64,000 nt of DNA, taken from assembly GCA_951406725.2 (NCBI GenBank), contig OX597824.1, forward strand, positions 98,394,001-98,458,000. The letters run 5' to 3'. A model generated the notes under the pieces. It saw only the letters and a program-made list of their open reading frames with translations, ran no database searches and was not told the origin of the DNA. The translations under genes and the position numbers were made by a program. This stretch comes from Octopus vulgaris (taxonomy: Eukaryota). This document shows positions 867 through 63,061 of the stretch, piece by piece. The stretch's first letter is position 1, and each line of letters opens with the position of its first letter.

Positions 867-916
<50 letters not shown>

Positions 917-1077
917 ATATTGGCAGGGCTGGCCTGCTAGGTAGCCGGCCAGAATGCTAGAAATAGATCATAAACGATCAAACTACAAGGGAAATTCTCT
1001 AGAGGAAGGATTCAGCGAACACCAGAACCAAATTTGGCGGGCAGGACATATGAAAAATTAAATAAAAAACAGACTTA

Positions 1078-1153
1078 AATGCATACCTCGGTTTCGGTCT
1101 TAACAAAAGAATTACTTGCATAATTCAAGTGTCCGTGACTTCTTCAGTACATT
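1078..1153 (-). ncRNA. Type I hammerhead ribozyme motif (inverted copy)
   Basis: Exact reverse complement of 1500-1575. Confidence 0.75.
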
Positions 1154-1499
1154 CGGTCCTCGAGATGCAAACCGCAAGACTAACCCCAATACACATATAT
1201 TTGAATTTTCTCTGACTCCTCAGATTTTTTGAATGCTGGACTACTGGTTTTAAATTGATATTAAAATTAATATTAATTTATCTCCCTCAATTTTTAAATA
1301 TTTAAATAAATACGTTCCCTAGTAGTAAGCTTTACCCGCAGTGAATTATTCACTGCAGCCCTTCGCTTCAGGAGTCTCTTAGCGCGCCAGAACCAAGACA
1401 TTTGAAATTTTATTCCCGATGTAATCAGTAAGACTAAGCACGTGTCTGTCTTGACACAGAGAGCTGGGGTTAGTCTTGCGGTTTGCATCTCGAGGACCG

Positions 1500-1575
1500 A
1501 ATGTACTGAAGAAGTCACGGACACTTGAATTATGCAAGTAATTCTTTTGTTAAGACCGAAACCGAGGTATGCATT
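1500..1575 (+). ncRNA. Type I hammerhead ribozyme motif
   Basis: AAUGUA CUGAAGA aGUC...GACc GAAA CCGAGG UA UGCAUU; 6-bp stem I; predicted GUA cleavage after 1569. Confidence 0.75.
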
Positions 1576-2205
1576 TAAGTCTGTTTTTTATTTAATTTTT
1601 CATATGTCCTGCCCGCCAAATTTGGTTCTGGTGTTCGCTGAATCCTTCCTCTAGAGAATTTCCCTTGTAGTTTGATCGTTTATGATCTATTTCTAGCATT
1701 CTGGCCGGCTACCTAGCAGGCCAGCCCTGCCAATATACACATATATTTGAATTTTCTCTGACTCCTCAGATTTTTTGAATGCTGGACTACTGGTTTTAAA
1801 TTGATATTAAAATTAATATTAATTTATCTCCCTCAATTTTTATATATATATATATATATATATTTGCATATATATTTATAGATACACACACACATATACA
1901 GTGCAACATTCTTGTTTTTATAAGTACCAGTTTACACATACAAACATATCAGTTTATCAACACATAAATATATAGAAATGCTACGCTAGCAGAAATACAA
2001 TTGCATACATCTTTCTCTATAAACAGACACTCGCGCAAACGTAAAGAAATGATCAAATACTGATACACCTCTCACTCTATCCCCTCCTCCCTTATCCTTC
2101 TCTCACTTGTCTCTGTATATATATATATATATATATGTATGTATGGATGGATAAATATGTGTGCCTGTGTGTATATGTGTAACACACATACATACATATA
2201 AGTAT

Positions 2206-14200: not shown

Positions 14201-14215
14201 TTATAATGTATATAT

Positions 14216-15207
14216 ATTTCCCTTGGGGGCTGCCCAGATCGGAGCAATCTCAAGATTAATCAGCCAAAATTGCGAGGATGATCCGGTTCTTGACTGATGA
14301 TTGAGGGCTTCGAATGTCCCGTCCGTGTTTTTTGTGTCGTCTTCTAAATGTTTCACGTTCTTGTCCCAGTTTGTATATTTTTTTATTTTTTTACTTTTAC
14401 ATATATACATAGCGGCTACGTACCCCTTTTTGACCCTATACGTAAGTATATACTCTTTAACATTGGTACGACTCTACTACACTGTCTCTTCCCCTCTCCT
14501 ACATTTCTCTGCCTTCACCCTTTGCACTCCCCTTGATCTTTCTCTCTTTCTCTCTCTTTCTTCTCCTCCCTTGTTCCCCTTCTTTCTTTCTCTCTTAATC
14601 TGTCCCCCCTCTCCTACATTTCTCTGCCTCTCACACCTTACACTCCACTTGATCTCTCTCTTTCCCTCTCTTTCTTCTCCTCCCTTGTTCCTTGTTCCCC
14701 TTCTTTCTCTCTTCATCTGTCCCTTTCTCCTCTCTTTTGTCCTCGTGTGACCAGCCACCGACTACTGCCTTTTCGCATCCAGCAGTCATTGTGGCAAGAC
14801 ACACTTGTTTGTTCTCTGTGGCCTTAAGGTACTCTTCTATAGCCAGCTCAAAAACTTAACTCGTCCTGTCGAAAAGACGCTTGTCCTGACGTCCTTGGTT
14901 TTGTTGTTATTATTACCATTATTGTTTTTACGTATTTTTGTATTTCTATTCGTGTACATCGTCCGTTTACCGTCTGTGTTGTATACATTCGAGGCTTTCT
15001 TCCAAGGAATCTAATGCGCTTGGCTTAGATTTCCCTTGGGGGCTGCCCAGATCGGAGCAATCTCAAGATTAATCAGCCGAAATTGAGAGGATGATCCGGT
15101 TCTTGACTGATGATTGTGAGCTTCGAATGTCGCATCCGTGTTTTTTGTGTCATCTAAATGTTTCACGTTCTTGTCCCAGTTTGTATATTTTTTAATTTTT
15201 TTACTTT

Positions 15208-15217
<10 letters not shown>
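14216..15217 (+). mobile_element. Partial-tandem element: about 190-bp direct terminal repeats, about 813-bp unit
   Basis: 14216-14407 is similar to 15029-15217 (a few substitutions and a 3-nt indel); non-coding CT-rich interior; TA-rich flanks. Confidence 0.75.
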
Positions 15218-15262
<45 letters not shown>

Positions 15263-15300
15263 TGATTGATAGGTAGATAGATCGATAGATAGATAGGATA

Positions 15301-15462
15301 AGCGTTGGCGTGGCTGTGTCGTAAGGAGCTTACTTCGCAACCACATGGTTCGGGGTTCAGTCCCACTGTGTAGCACCTTGGGAAAGTGTCTTCTGCTATA
15401 GCCTCGGGCCGACCAAAGTCTTGTGAGTGGATTTGGTGGACGGAAACTGAAGGAAGCCCGTC

Positions 15463-15540
<78 letters not shown>

Positions 15541-16200: not shown

Positions 16201-16247
16201 TCATGCGGCGCTCCGTGCAGCCTGCTCTTTACTATATATGTATATAT

Positions 16248-16487
16248 AAATTGATTGATAGGTAGATAGATCGATAGATAGATAGGATAAGCGTAGGCGT
16301 GGCTGTGTCGTAAGGAGCTTACTTCGCAACCACATGGTTCGGGGTTCAGTCCCACTGTGTAGCACCTTGGGAAAGTGTCTTCTGCTATAGCCTCGGGCCG
16401 ACCAAAGCCTTGTGAGTGGATTTGGTGGACGGAAACTGAAGGAAGCCCGTCGTATATATATATGTGTGTGTACATTTGTGTATTTGT
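16248..16487 (+). repeat. Local duplicate of 15259-15556 (flank plus SINE head)
   Basis: Only 2 mismatches seen over about 205 bp, including the non-SINE flank. Confidence 0.85.
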
Positions 16488-16493
16488 GTAATT

Positions 16494-16546
<53 letters not shown>

Positions 16547-20140: not shown

Positions 20141-20975
20141 ATGAGGTGCGACCAAAAAGTATCTGAGTTTATTTTTACTTTCAAAACTAATGTCGTGTGG
20201 TCAAAATCCTTTGGGTGGGAGGTGACGTTTTACTGCGCATGCGTGAAAACTTACGCGTCGGTAGGTCGCTTCAGTTCCCGGCTGATACGACTAGAGTACA
20301 GGCGTTTAGAGCGCGCTCGTCAGATTTTTGGTTTCACGCAACATGACCGAACACATCGAGCCCCAGTCTCATCACCAGTGATGGCGGCCTTCATGAAGCC
20401 TGGGTCGTGGTTTGCACAGTACAGCATGTTCTGAGCGATTTCCATGTGGTATCGTTTCTGCCTCTCCACCAGCACCATGGGGTCGAATTTAGCAGGGAAA
20501 CACACTGCATACACAAATCCTTCGTTAAAATGGAATGAACGAATCCTGTGATTATCATCACTTCGTGAGCAATTTCTTGGATTGTTACACGACGGTCCTC
20601 TATGACTACTCGCAGAACCTTCTGAGGAGGTTCCTCATTTTGACGTGTGCGTGACCAATCGCAGCGTGCCTCTCCACTGTGTTTTTGCCATGGTATCATC
20701 ACCAAAGCCCTGCTGAATCTTTTGGACGGTTTGATCTTGAGTTCCACCAAGCTTTTGGGAAAATTTGATGCAATATCTCTGTTCGATGCGTCCAGTGAAA
20801 ACGAAAATCCGACGAGCGCCCACTACAGGTCTGTACTCTAGGCGTAACATCCGGGATCTAACGCAACCTAACGGTGCGAAAAGCTTAACGCATGCGCAGA
20901 AAGAGTGGATTCATCTCCCACCTAAAGGATTTTCCCCACGCAGCATTAGTTTGGCGGGAAAAAATAAAGCCGTAT
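20141..20975. mobile_element. Mariner-derived element made of two inverted 5' ends
   Basis: Minus strand: IEQRYCIKFSQKLG..EDRRVTIQEIA..AKFDP..FMKAAITGDETG; the left part is a + strand 5' end up to MTEHIE; about 200-bp imperfect inverted ends. Confidence 0.8.
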
Positions 20976-37123: not shown

Positions 37124-39565
37124 GAAACAAATAAGAAACAAATAAGAAACAAATAAGAAACAAATAAGAAACAAATAAGAAACAAATAAGAAACAAATAA
37201 GAAACAAATAAGAAACAAATAAGAAACAAATAAGAAACAAATAAGAAACAAATAAGAAAGAAATAAGAAAGAAATAAGAAACAAATAAGAAACAAATAAG
37301 AAACAAATAAGAAACAAATAAGAAACAAATAAGAAACAAATAAGAAACAAATAAGAAAGAAATAAGAAACAAATAAGAAACAAATAAGAAACAAATAAGA
37401 AACAAATAAGAAACAAATAAGAAACAAATAAGAAACAAATAAGAAACAAATAAGAAACAAATAAGAAAGAAATAAGAAACAAATAAGAAACAAATAAGAA
37501 ACAAATAAGAAACAAATAAGAAACAAATAAGAAACAAATAAGAAACAAATAAGAAACAAATAAGAAAGAAATAAGAAACAAATAAGAAAGAAATAAGAAA
37601 CAAATAAGAAACAAATAAGAAACAAATAAGAAAGAAATAAGAAAGAAATAAGAAACAAATAAGAAACAAATAAGAAACAAATAAGAAACAAATAAGAAAC
37701 AAATAAGAAACAAATAAGAAAGAAATAAGAAACAAATAAGAAACAAATAAGAAACAAATAAGAAACAAATAAGAAACAAATAAGAAAGAAATAAGAAACA
37801 AATAAGAAACAAATAAGAAACAAATAAGAAACAAATAAGAAACAAATAAGAAACAAATAAGAAACAAATAAGAAACAAATAAGAAACAAATAAGAAACAA
37901 ATAAGAAAGAAATAAGAAACAAATAAGAAACAAATAAGAAACAAATAAGAAACAAATAAGAAACAAATAAGAAACAAATAAGAAACAAATAAGAAAGAAA
38001 TAAGAAACAAATAAGAAACAAATAAGAAAGAAATAAGAAACAAATAAGAAACAAATAAGAAACAAATAAGAAACAAATAAGAAACAAATAAGAAACAAAT
38101 AAGAAACAAATAAGAAACAAATAAGAAACAAATAAGAAACAAATAAGAAACAAATAAGAAAGAAATAAGAAACAAATAAGAAAGAAATAAGAAACAATTA
38201 AGAAACAAATAAGAAACAAATAAGAAACAAATAAGAAACAAATAAGAAACAAATAAGAAACAAATAAGAAAGAAATAAGAAACAAATAAGAAACAAATAA
38301 GAAACAAATAAGAAACAAATAAGAAACAAATAAGAAACAAATAAGAAACAAATAAGAAAGAAATAAGAAACAAATAAGAAACAAATAAGAAACAAATAAG
38401 AAACAAATAAGAAACAAATAAGAAACAAATAAGAAAGAAATAAGAAAGAAATAAGAAACAAATAAGAAACAAATAAGAAACAAATAAGAAACAAATAAGA
38501 AACAAATAAGAAACAAATAAGAAACAAATAAGAAACAAATAAGAAACAAATAAGAAAGAAATAAGAAACAAATAAGAAACAAATAAGAAACAAATAAGAA
38601 ACAAATAAGAAAGAAATAAGAAACAAATAAGAAACAAATAAGAAACAAATAAGAAACAAATAAGAAACAAATAAGAAACAAATAAGAAACAAATAAGAAA
38701 GAAATAAGAAACAAATAAGAAACAAATAAGAAACAAATAAGAAACAAATAAGAAACAAATAAGAAACAAATAAGAAACAAATAAGAAAGAAATAAGAAAC
38801 AAATAAGAAACAAATAAGAAACAAATAAGAAACAAATAAGAAACAAATAAGAAACAAATAAGAAACAAATAAGAAACAAATAAGAAAGAAATAAGAAACA
38901 AATAAGAAACAAATAAGAAACAAATAAGAAACAAATAAGAAACAAATAAGAAACAAATAAGAAAGAAATAAGAAACAAATAAGAAACAAATAAGAAACAA
39001 ATAAGAAACAAATAAGAAACAAATAAGAAACAAATAAGAAACAAATAAGAAACAAATAAGAAAGAAATAAGAAACAAATAAGAAACAAATAAGAAACAAA
39101 TAAGAAACAAATAAGAAACAAATAAGAAACAAATAAGAAACAAATAAGAAACAAATAAGAAACAAATAAGAAACAAATAAGAAACAAATAAGAAAGAAAT
39201 AAGAAAGAAATAAGAAACAAATAAGAAACAAATAAGAAAGAAATAAGAAAGAAATAAGAAACAAATAAGAAACAAATAAGAAACAAATAAGAAACAAATA
39301 AGAAACAAATAAGAAACAAATAAGAAACAAATAAGAAACAAATAAGAAAGAAATAAGAAACAAATAAGAAAGAAATAAGAAACAAATAAGAAACAAATAA
39401 GAAACAAATAAGAAACAAATAAGAAACAAATAAGAAACAAATAAGAAACAAATAAGAAACAAATAAGAAACAAATAAGAAACAAATAAGAAACAAATAAG
39501 AAACAAATAAGAAACAAATAAGAAACAAATAAGAAACAAATAAGAAACAAATAAGAAACAAATAA
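37124..39565 (+). repeat. 11-bp satellite (GAAACAAATAA)n, about 222 units
   Basis: 2442 bp = 222 x 11; recurrent GAAAGAAATAA variant; one GAAACAATTAA unit near 38191. Confidence 0.97.
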
Positions 39566-39684
39566 GAACATGCTGAAACTCGAGGTGTAAATAATAAAGT
39601 GAAATACCTTGGAACTGAAATCTACCTATCAATCTGTCTGTCTGTGTTTGTCTGCTTGTCTATCAACCCACCTGCTTACGTACG

Positions 39685-40245
<561 letters not shown>

Positions 40246-49944: not shown

Positions 49945-50850
49945 TTAGGGTTTTACATATGATGGAATAATAAAAGACAGACAATAAATGCGAGGGTTTA
50001 CACATAATAGGGAAAACAAGGTGTTAACAGGCATCATCACGGGGAAAATATATACACGTTCTTTGCATCAAATAATTTGCTTCCAGTAGAACAAAAGGGA
50101 TGCCAAAAGAATCGAAGGGCACCAAGGACCACCTTGTAATGAAGAACTGCAAACGGTACCAAATAAAATTGTGCATGGCCTGGATAGGTTTTAAAAAGGC
50201 TTACGACATGTTGCCGCATTCGTGGATTCTGGAAACACTCGACAGTTGAGAAGGTGTCTGCCCTGATTAAGAACAGCATGCTTCGTTGGAAAACGTCTTT
50301 TGTGTAACAACCAGCATTTAGCCGAAGTAACAATGAACAGAAGTATCTTCCAGGGAGATTCTTGTTCACCTTTGTTGTTTGTTATTTGTTCTACGCAAAC
50401 TCAACGCGCACACAATGATCTGAGAAGTAAAGGACCTCGTCTCAACCACATTCTCTTCACGGATGATTTAAAATTGTTCGCAAAAAATGGAAGGCTGAAA
50501 TGGAGAGGCTGGTTTGGTTGAGAGTGTGTAGATGTGCAGCAAGGATATAGGGACGGAATTCGGTATCGCAAAGTGTGTGGTGTTCACTTTGAAACGGGGG
50601 AAAAGAGCAGATTGTAGGGGCATAGAATTGCCGAATGGAGAGAGGATAGAGGACCCGGATGATGATGATGATGATGATGATGGCACCTTGGGATCTTGGA
50701 GCTGGACAACATCTTGCACAGGGAAATGAAAGACAAAATCATCACTGCATTTTCCAAGCGCCTGAAACTTCTCTTGAAATCAAACCTCAACTCATAGAAA
50801 CTCGTGACAGCCATCAACATATGGTCTTGTCAGTTGCTTGACCGTAGCCA
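49945..50850 (+). mobile_element. R4/Dong-like LINE reverse transcriptase fragment
   Basis: EQKGC..MAWIGFKKAYDMLPHSWI..IFQGDSCSPLLF..LNHILFTDDLKLFA..DIGTEFGIAKC. Confidence 0.88.
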
Positions 50851-55462: not shown

Positions 55463-55689
55463 TATATGTATGTATGTATGCATACATATATACAGATACT
55501 TACATACACATACACTGACAAGCACAAGCGCACACACGCACACACACTAACCCTAATGTTTGACTTGTACTTCAATTTACTGACCCCAGAGGCGATGGAA
55601 TGCAAGAATGAATGGTGATGAGATGATGATGATGATGATGATGATGATAACATCTATCTCAAAGTAAGGAAACCTTGCTAGTGTCATCT

Positions 55690-56480
55690 AGAAATGAGGG
55701 GGGTGTTGAAAGCCGAGAAAAAAGGAAACACAAAGCAAGAAGTACAAAAAATTACATGAAGAAACTTTGCGCCACAAGGGACCGCCTAATCACTTGCATG
55801 TGGCCACCACTGAAGTTGCTGGAACAAAAATTGGTGGGATTCGCTAATGAAGGAACCCTAAAAAAAGAAACTGAGAGCACTATACTGGCAGTGCAAGACC
55901 AAGCTTTGACCACAAATTGGAGGGTCAGACTTAGGAATGAGCAAGTGTTTCCACTGTGCCGCAATGGACGAAACCATTGCCTATACTGCAAACGAACGCC
56001 CAAGACTTGCCCCAAACAATTTGTGGCGATACGATGATGTAGGGAAGGGGCCACATTGGAAACTGTGCGAAAAGTGGGGTCTAGAGAGAGCAAGGCGTGG
56101 TGTAGCACAGACTGTAGAGAATGGCGGAGTCGGAAATCTGTAAAATCCTCTGGGATTTCCTAATCCGAAGAAATCAGGAAGGCGAAAAAGTAAATATATA
56201 CAACCCTCTTAAATACGAAATAGCCCTGCAATGGAAAATGAAGAAAGTGAAGATAGTGCCAATTATTGTTAGGTCCTTGAAGACAGTATCAGAAGGCATG
56301 AAGAGGAATAGAAAGGAAATTGGAATAGAGTGCCCAGTAGAACTGTTACAAAAGTTTGCCCCCTTGGCATGGCCAGAATAATCAAGAAAGTATTAGATAG
56401 CTGAAGGGAATGGGTAGCATGGTACCATAGTCTGCAGGTATTGCAACAAGACTCCAGGAATATTACAACAAAACCTGATA
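55690..56480 (+). mobile_element. R4/Dong-like LINE 3' fragment followed by (TAA)n
   Basis: LKKETESTILAVQDQALTT..ETI..HWKLC..KILWDF..LKYEIALQWKMKKVKIVPIIV. Confidence 0.85.
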
Positions 56481-56508
56481 ATAATAATAATAATAATAAT
56501 GATAATAA

Positions 56509-56628
<120 letters not shown>

Positions 56629-56680
56629 CCCAGTGTCATTTTGATAGCATGCATTGCTCTCTCACTCAATAATAATAATA

Positions 56681-57285
56681 ATGGCTCAAATATTCTGAAC
56701 TAAAAGCCGAAACGGAACGTCTGACTCTCGCTGCACAAGACCAATGCCTGACTACAAACAATTATGAAAAAAAAATAATGAAAACTGGTCTCAACACCAA
56801 ATGCAGAATATGCAACCAGTGCAATGAGACAGTTGACCACATCCCTGGGGCTGCTCAGTTCTTGCCAAGTCTAAATTACTATACAGACACGACAAAGGAA
56901 GCAGATATATCCACTGGACAATATGCCAACAGGAGGTGTCATATAAGTATGAGCCAAACAAGGTACAAAACAACGACCAGGTCACAATCATCTGGGATAT
57001 GCTGGTTCAAACCGACAAAGAAATAAAAGCTAATCGGCCAGACATAATAATCAAGGATTGAAGAAAAAACACCTGCTTACTGATAGACATTGCAGTTCCT
57101 TCTGAGCAAAATATTGTCAAGAAAGAATTGGAGAAATTGTCCAAGTACAAAGACCTCGAAATCGAAATATTTAAAGTGTGAGGCATGAAGGTAAAAACAA
57201 TATCAATAATGATTGGAGCATTGGGCATGATAAAAAATCATTTGAACAAAAATGTAGAAGCTATACCTAGATCCTCAACACTATA
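56681..57285 (+). mobile_element. R4/Dong-like LINE 3' fragment (CCHC plus RLE)
   Basis: LKAETE..AAQDQ..KCRICNQCNETVDHI..IWDM..ANRPDIII..LIDIAVP..KELEKLSKYKDL..IGALG. Confidence 0.9.
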
Positions 57286-59409: not shown

Positions 59410-59847
<438 letters not shown>

Positions 59848-62758: not shown

Positions 62759-63061
62759 TACTGAATGCGTTAAAGGTGCCCTCCGCATGATCCAACGGGA
62801 ACGCTGCTCGAAGGCTGGCTTCAAGGCTAATATGGATATATGACGTGACTGTGTGGCAAGAAATTGGCTTCCTAAGCACACGGTTACGGATTCAGTCACA
62901 CTACGTAGCATCTTCTACTATTGCCTCGAGCCAACCAAAGCCTTGTGAGTGGATTTTGTTGACGGAAACCGAATGAAGCTCGTCGTATATAGGATGTATG
63001 TATGTATATGTATCCATACATACATACATATATATATATATTGCAAACCAAATCCCAAAAC

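Follow-up and report, generated by a model that had tools for sequence, protein, structure and literature searches.

Insertions of Penelope-like elements (PLEs) follow a recognizable layout, in which partial tandems are often accompanied by an inverted 5'-truncated copy, a one-sided tail of 30-40 bp is present, and the targets are (TA)n (PMC8557442). The same layout is described in PMC3846280, which attributes head-to-head inversions to an antisense template on which self-priming takes place. Inversion is thus standard among PLEs. For example, in Penelope-13_HM the 5' copy is inverted, both strands have a hammerhead, and the target is (TA)n, and the octopus element Hydra-1_Obim has a hammerhead similar in layout to the one described here and different in sequence (PMC8557442 supplement). 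The hammerheads of PLEs are marked by a residue located between positions 9 and 10.1, a G10.1-C11.1 pair, and a palindromic stem/loop III (PMC4209133). In Octopus vulgaris, 31 recently active PLE families have been reported, in a paper whose main text contains the word "ribozyme" 0 times (PMC13282606). How PLEs form their tandem and inverted ends, and whether the ribozyme is involved, are stated to be open questions (PMC8557442; PMC3846280; PMC11167929).

ORF-less tandem units with type I hammerheads have been described as non-LTR retrozymes (PMC7229834). Retrozyme families range from 51 to 972 bp and are argued to derive from the pLTRs of PLEs; for animals, this link rests on co-occurrence and pLTR similarity (bioRxiv 10.64898/2026.07.22.740005). 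We found no report of an octopus or cephalopod retrozyme family in a literature collection without Repbase and most subscription papers; within that scope, the family described here would be the first from a cephalopod.

Here, we analyzed a stretch of O. vulgaris DNA of 64 kb (64,000 nucleotides of contig OX597824.1), referred to as the window, which contains an insertion at 912-1842. We are fairly confident that this insertion is young and that it belongs to a high-copy 546-nt repeat family that lacks an ORF and carries the motif of a type I hammerhead. The copy is likely a non-autonomous PLE (non-LTR retrozyme) that a PLE enzyme acting in trans placed in a TA microsatellite. Elements of this kind are already known, and we favour reading the window copy as a non-autonomous derivative of PLEs that belongs to the non-LTR retrozyme type. 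Its value is mechanistic, in that an ORF-less hammerhead unit itself bears the insertion signature of PLEs.

Layout and Boundaries of the Insertion

When the unit is numbered from position 1189, the insertion consists of the reverse complement of unit positions 277-553, followed by unit positions 1-546 and 1-108. One complete 546-nt ORF-less unit with a GC content of 39% occupies 1189-1734 on the plus strand. Its first 108 nt (1189-1296, plus strand), which are equivalent to the tail, recur at 1735-1842 on the same strand at an offset of 546, and the two copies are identical at 108/108 positions. The pLTR-like segment (1465-1741, plus strand) has its exact reverse complement, the inverted pLTR-like arm, at 912-1188 on the minus strand, with 277/277 positions complementary. 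Neither repeat could be extended. Both the identical 277-bp inverted repeat and the identical 108-bp direct repeat at offset 546 had been claimed in the initial annotation, and both are borne out.

The left target flank (866-920) consists of (TA)19.5 followed by (TG)n-TATAT. Bases 912-920 are compatible with both the flank and the element, a microhomology of 9 nt over which the left boundary is ambiguous. At the inversion junction (1186-1191), the minus-strand run ends at the equivalent of 1465 and the forward copy begins at the equivalent of 1735; a 3-nt CCA microhomology with a 2-nt slip fits this junction. On the right, a one-sided tail of 101 nt (1742-1842) extends past the boundary of the inverted repeat and is followed by a (TA)n target flank (1841-1862), the boundary being ambiguous by 1-2 nt. 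Both flanks are TA/TG microsatellite, and no target-site duplication could be resolved at either of them. An AT-rich or (TA)n target is present on both sides, a point weakened by the very common occurrence of microsatellites in the window. The signs of a PLE insertion are present, namely a partial tandem, an inverted 5' copy, and a one-sided tail, which at 101 nt is longer than the usual 30-40. The layout equals that published for PLEs, microsatellite bias included.

A MITE or another DNA transposon was also considered and rejected: past the right arm the element continues for 101 nt, the arm itself consists of sequence from inside the unit, and no target-site duplication is resolvable. A self-search of the 64-kb window detected no further copy of the unit. 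Other repeats in the window include an 11-bp satellite at 37124-39568 (222 copies, 97% match), followed by about 140 copies of TATC (whole region, 37124-40245), and dispersed SINE-like repeats with 71-93% identity, located at 15244-15516, 16233-16519, and 62841-63041; at 2361-2570 and 59490-59711; and at 14213-14411 and 15026-15221.

Hammerhead Motif and Predicted Folding

A descriptor search located a type I hammerhead at 1499-1576 on the plus strand, with a predicted cut at 1569/1570. Stem I (1500-1505/1570-1575) has 6 bp including one U.G, and a seventh pair, G.U, is possible. The core is formed by CUGAAGA (1506-1512) and GAAA (1558-1561), a CGAG loop closes the 2-bp stem III, and the long helix II is interrupted and has a GCAA-capped hairpin. 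An extra A1513 lies between A9 and G10.1, a G1514-C1557 pair is possible, and stem III with its loop is self-complementary. The motif has three traits given for the hammerheads of PLEs (PMC4209133), although the G1514-C1557 register requires a bulge and is unfavoured in the predicted fold. None of 2000 dinucleotide shuffles of the unit matched the descriptor, and the intact hammerhead with a 6-bp stem I that had been claimed for this site (descriptor match at +1506) is upheld.

The only other match of the type I descriptor in the window is at -1147. It belongs to the inverted copy of the same hammerhead (1077-1154, minus strand, core from 1147), which is no separate ribozyme, and no type I hammerhead was detected by the descriptor on the minus strand of the circular unit. 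The initial proposal of a hammerhead on each strand thus stands for the insertion as it lies in the window, but the minus-strand motif is an inverted copy, and the descriptor finds no antisense ribozyme in the unit. A viroid- or deltavirus-like circle with ambisense ribozymes was rejected on the lack of a minus-strand type I hammerhead in the unit, other ribozyme types having been checked by Rfam only. Rfam gave 0 matches at the gathering threshold and no hammerhead among 17 matches at E<=10, probably because 45 nt separate the two halves of the core.

The predicted fold of the unit is rod-like and better than that of 100/100 shuffles (z -4.7). It includes a long-range stem around the hammerhead domain (1379-1641, plus strand), in which 1379-1412 pairs with 1593-1641. 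In folding predictions, the active stem III is populated at about 1% in the monomer and about 33% in the isolated dimer, and in a 924-nt model of the template neither the active stem III nor the double hammerhead exceeds 1%. Weak activity is predicted for the monomeric ribozyme, and it likely does not define the ends of this insertion. The best fold of the isolated dimer is a double hammerhead; regulation by a double hammerhead was rejected, the gain of the dimer equalling the shuffle median (100/200) and not going beyond it.

Comparison With Described Elements

The insertion resembles the EN+ PLEs (Penelope/Poseidon, Neptune, and Hydra clades; Penelope-13_HM, Pen2a_Av, and Hydra-1_Obim) in its partial tandem, in the inverted 5' copy that produces flanking inverted repeats, in the one-sided tail and (TA)n target, and in a hammerhead within the terminal repeat that has an extra nucleotide after A9. 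It differs from them in that the unit has no RT/GIY-YIG ORF, the tail is 101 nt rather than 30-40 nt, and the inverted arm replaces the upstream direct pLTR and is not head-to-head with it. With the published consensus sequences of octopus Naiad and Hydra elements, no exact motif was found in common. Like the non-autonomous Chlamys elements (such as MRC1, PMC8557442), the unit is an ORF-less PLE derivative with pLTRs and head-to-tail insertions; in contrast, the Chlamys elements are green-algal and tied to a clade in which canonical hammerheads are said to be missing. L1 5' inversions formed by twin priming (PMC2246262) differ from the present case, in which there is no poly(A) tail, no L1 sequence, and no resolvable target-site duplication, and both primings would be internal.

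In common with non-LTR retrozymes, the unit is ORF-less, has a GC content of <45%, and contains one type I hammerhead with a 2-bp helix III and a tetraloop; it has a head-to-tail period of 546, within the range of 51-972 bp, a highly self-paired fold, and, probably, thousands of copies. Judged by such features, the 546-nt unit has the sequence properties of a retrozyme unit. In contrast to described retrozymes, it carries a PLE-type inverted arm and tail (the main text of PMC7229834 has 0 occurrences of the word "inverted"), its 546 nt exceed the 170-400 nt of the reported circles, and its helix II is long and interrupted. Under the rule for "active" loci in the preprint (two consecutive direct units with complete hammerheads; bioRxiv 10.64898/2026.07.22.740005), the locus does not count as active, since it has one direct hammerhead and one inverted hammerhead.

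Copies of the Unit in Public Sequencing Runs

The 546-nt unit was present in 20 of the 24 public runs listed (10 studies, 4 organism labels), in all cases as contigs and in none that is recorded as RNA. The contigs of four runs (X1, X2, X4, and X15) were aligned to window positions 1297-2110, with 1794-1901 left out, and X1, tentatively an RNA run, served only for questions of structure. Across 17 bins of the unit, the summed depth was 963-15,939x that of the unique flank in X4 (median, 5,564) and 952-8,444x in X2 (median, 2,770). This ratio is not a copy number and is inflated by overlapping contigs, so we read it as being of the order of a thousand or more; the window insertion is probably one of thousands of copies. 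Of the 865 pieces aligned in X4, 304 were >=99% alike and 247 were <95% alike, and young and older copies therefore coexist. X15 has only 1.4 million letters of contigs, yet most of the unit is present in it.

The 546-nt period also recurs in these runs. In X1, record 5 extends to 1814 and record 1 begins at 1239 (=1785-546), giving an overlap of 30, and overlaps of 30 nt were found at 4/4 of the cycle steps checked. In X15, record 10 extends as far as 1835, and the start of record 8 lies at 1260 (=1806-546), which is a tail-to-body step with the same overlap of 30. Assembly with 31-letter words leaves overlaps of k-1, i.e., 30. The closed cycle follows from the arithmetic of contig overlaps, not from the letters of the overhangs, in two studies; the overlaps in X1 and X15 close the same 546-nt cycle, and the period is therefore not an artefact of the present assembly. 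The short period in these two runs also argues against a unit that is always joined to a long PLE ORF.

One of the joints listed connects 1465 to 1694 on opposite strands, with a depth of 32.6 in X4 and 192 in X2. The zero shared letters at this joint favour the same polarity as at the window's own 1465/1735 junction, which is not among the 2 joints listed across the four aligned runs. Three X4 contigs exit the unit at 1746 into (AT)n, adjoining the outer end of the inverted arm. At 1699, 11-15 contigs per DNA run in X2 and X4 depart with similar but altered sequence as loose ends. A diverged sister subfamily is represented by these loose ends and, in X1, by record 3, a 481-nt contig that has 1384-1413 in common with the unit and departs at 1413. 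In X15, the depth over 1708-1835 is 119, about 2.5x that of the remaining unit (43-50), and this segment is therefore common to short copies or to other families, possibly including the autonomous partner.

Alleles and Age of the Copy

The window copy has C1644, where all of the aligned contig depth has T, and T1681, where >=95% of the depth in X2 and X4 has G; both alleles occur in both arms. Contigs drop rare variants, and the absence of C1644 and T1681 from contigs does not imply their absence from individuals. The description of the insertion as pristine is therefore accurate for the comparison between the arms, but not for the comparison with the contig majority, from which it differs at 1644 and 1681. 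The 0 differences found in 385 nt set an upper bound of about 0.8% on the divergence between the copies. At the rate implied by a distance of 0.09 corresponding to 25 My (PMC13282606), this bounds the age of the copy to about 1 My or less. The very recent origin that had been read from zero divergence is compatible with this result, but the 0/385 differences go no further than this bound.

Proposed Mechanism of Insertion and Alternative Explanations

In the mechanism we propose, a source locus in partial tandem would yield an uncleaved RNA of at least 924 nt starting at 1465 of the upstream repeat, so that the template RNA would comprise 1465-1734 followed by 1189-1842 (924 nt). A PLE reverse transcriptase-endonuclease, supplied in trans, would insert the unit into (TA)n, and both DNA ends at the nicked site would prime reverse transcription. 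The first priming, in the distal tail (1842), would copy 654 nt. The second, near 1732-1741 of the upstream repeat and aided by the 9 nt of TG/TA microhomology, would give a cDNA that runs 277 nt to the 5' end of the RNA (1465), with the inverted arm 912-1188 as its predicted product. The two cDNAs would meet where the second began and be joined, which would leave the upstream repeat flipped. We infer the RNA intermediate, the PLE enzyme, the linear template, and the RNA 5' end at 1465; the repeats, the motif, the target context, and the abundance in other runs are observed.

Within the class assigned above, we lean slightly towards such a linear, uncleaved template. On the unit, the start of the forward copy (1735) abuts the outer end of the arm that is inverted (1732-1741), as twin priming on one RNA would produce (PMC2246262). 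We also count for a linear template the second junction with the 1465 breakpoint (1465/1694 in X2 and X4), the position of both 3' ends of the insertion away from the ribozyme site 1569/1570, and the low predicted population of the active stem III, about 1% for the monomer and 0-1% for the 924-nt model. A PLE protein studied in vitro nicks AT-rich DNA and elongates both strands; its two start sites, which define the tail, are internal to the RNA, and it prefers unprocessed RNA with or without a working hammerhead (PMC11167929). The initial annotation had proposed reverse transcription of a circular or multimeric RNA, about 1.2 passes around the unit, followed by an inversion. A more-than-unit RNA with an inversion agrees with the 546-nt join implied in other runs and with the published PLE layout, whereas for the circle the geometry leans to an uncleaved linear multimer; the 1.2 passes hold for the direct units, but with the inverted arm the template amounts to about 1.7 units (924 nt). 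More tentatively, 1465, which lies some 105 nt upstream of the ribozyme site, may be a fixed RNA 5' end of the whole family, and one uncleaved 924-nt transcript may produce both the partial tandems and the twin-primed inverted 5' copies. If this is true, the family would be a natural data set for separating a circle, antisense self-priming, and twin priming; a short, young, high-copy family permits breakpoint counts that distinguish insertion models.

For an element of the same class, the template could instead have been a 546-nt circular RNA that arose by hammerhead cleavage and ligation. Copying would then have gone around it 1.2 times, and the inverted arm would stem from a second priming; we regard this as possible but doubtful. 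It is the simpler explanation for the rare alleles C1644 and T1681, both of which lie 3' of the cut site and are common to both arms; the linear model requires a homogenizing step or a source whose repeats were already identical, and the length of the tail also counts against it. Furthermore, mussel retrozymes are expressed as circles (PMC7229834), a circle has been proposed as the template of PLE tandems (PMC4209133), and the rod-like fold, the double hammerhead as the best fold of the isolated dimer, and the hammerhead core, which has no variant at >=5% in the four runs (one contig end has a change of the stem I U.G to C-G), are consistent with circularization. However, a circle has no end that would account for the recurrent stop at 1465, and a forward cDNA would run through the second priming site on lap one but end there on lap two. 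The dimer gain that equals the shuffle median and the unpopulated double hammerhead in the 924-nt model argue in the same direction, as do the size of 546 nt, which exceeds the 170-400 nt of reported circles (PMC7229834), and the Xenopus dimers, 8/9 of which did not cleave (bioRxiv 10.64898/2026.07.22.740005).

The 1465 breakpoint recurs in a single other junction, and that junction may be inherited. It is unlikely, though, that the inverted layout as a whole came from a master copy with the 1465/1694 junction from which 41 nt were since lost, in which case 1465 would mark one old event and not an RNA end. At this joint the depth in X2 is 192, about 6x that of the flank (33), which points to several copies of a single junction, and the CCA microhomology at the window junction fits this history. 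Against it, the arms are identical down to the two rare alleles, and both the microhomology of the left outer end with the target and the exit of other copies into (AT)n at 1746 are as for a fresh priming site. Lower X4 depth over 1297-1380 than downstream, contigs that break near 1380, and the roughly 2.5x deeper tail than body in X15, where other sequences may join the pLTR or the tail, could indicate that the unit is a mere terminal remnant of an autonomous PLE of 2.5-4 kb, rearranged at one locus. We consider this very unlikely in view of the tail-to-body join implied in X1 and X15, the depth of 1297-1380 itself (about 1,000-2,000x that of the flank), and the ORF-less unit. Still less probable is an artefact of assembly or a fold-back chimera in microsatellite-rich DNA: the arms are perfectly identical and the junctions of the window locus are absent from the joints listed in the four aligned runs (1794-1901 left out), yet the left flank differs from the right flank, unlike in a simple fold-back, the layout has an exact published precedent (PMC8557442; PMC3846280), and the related inversion joint (1465/1694) occurs in two runs.

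Coding Capacity and Candidate Partners

When the unit was read as a circle in six frames, the longest stop-to-stop stretch was 97 codons, and none of its open stretches had a Pfam match, which agrees with the earlier description of the unit as ORF-less. An autonomous PLE was rejected for the insertion, as no RT plus GIY-YIG ORF lies between the pLTRs (six-frame reading, Pfam). No autonomous partner was found among the peptides of the window and the published consensus sequences of octopus Naiads and Hydra-1_Obim, which counts against a PLE-mobilized copy; the Naiads and Hydra-1_Obim found no support as partners, there being no by-eye likeness to the unit in the Naiad consensus ends or in the Hydra-1_Obim hammerhead. 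Of six exact motifs compared with the PMC8557442 supplement, which covers Naiad, Chlamys, and Hydra only, five were absent, and one 11-mer occurred only in GC-rich non-octopus sequences. Exact motifs of the unit had 0 matches in metagenome contigs, 0 in prokaryote genomes, and none in phages. The one match in viral contigs (L001:914-934), 21 nt identical to the region of the hammerhead core, had no further likeness and was taken as chance.

Among the 100 longest of the 169 higher-complexity frames of the window, Pfam detected no PLE domain; there were two sub-cutoff matches, neither of them near the element. The peptides at 90-350 and 20320-20822, presumably remnants of Tc1/mariner transposases by their resemblance, had no Pfam match at E 0.01. 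At 50267-50518, distant from the element, a reverse-transcriptase fragment matches RVT_1 below the cutoff (E 1.3e-4). Two similar peptide remnants lie at 55651-57023, of which 56682-57023 matches zf-RVT below the cutoff (E 5.8e-4), and they are likely C-terminal pieces of a restriction-like-endonuclease LINE.
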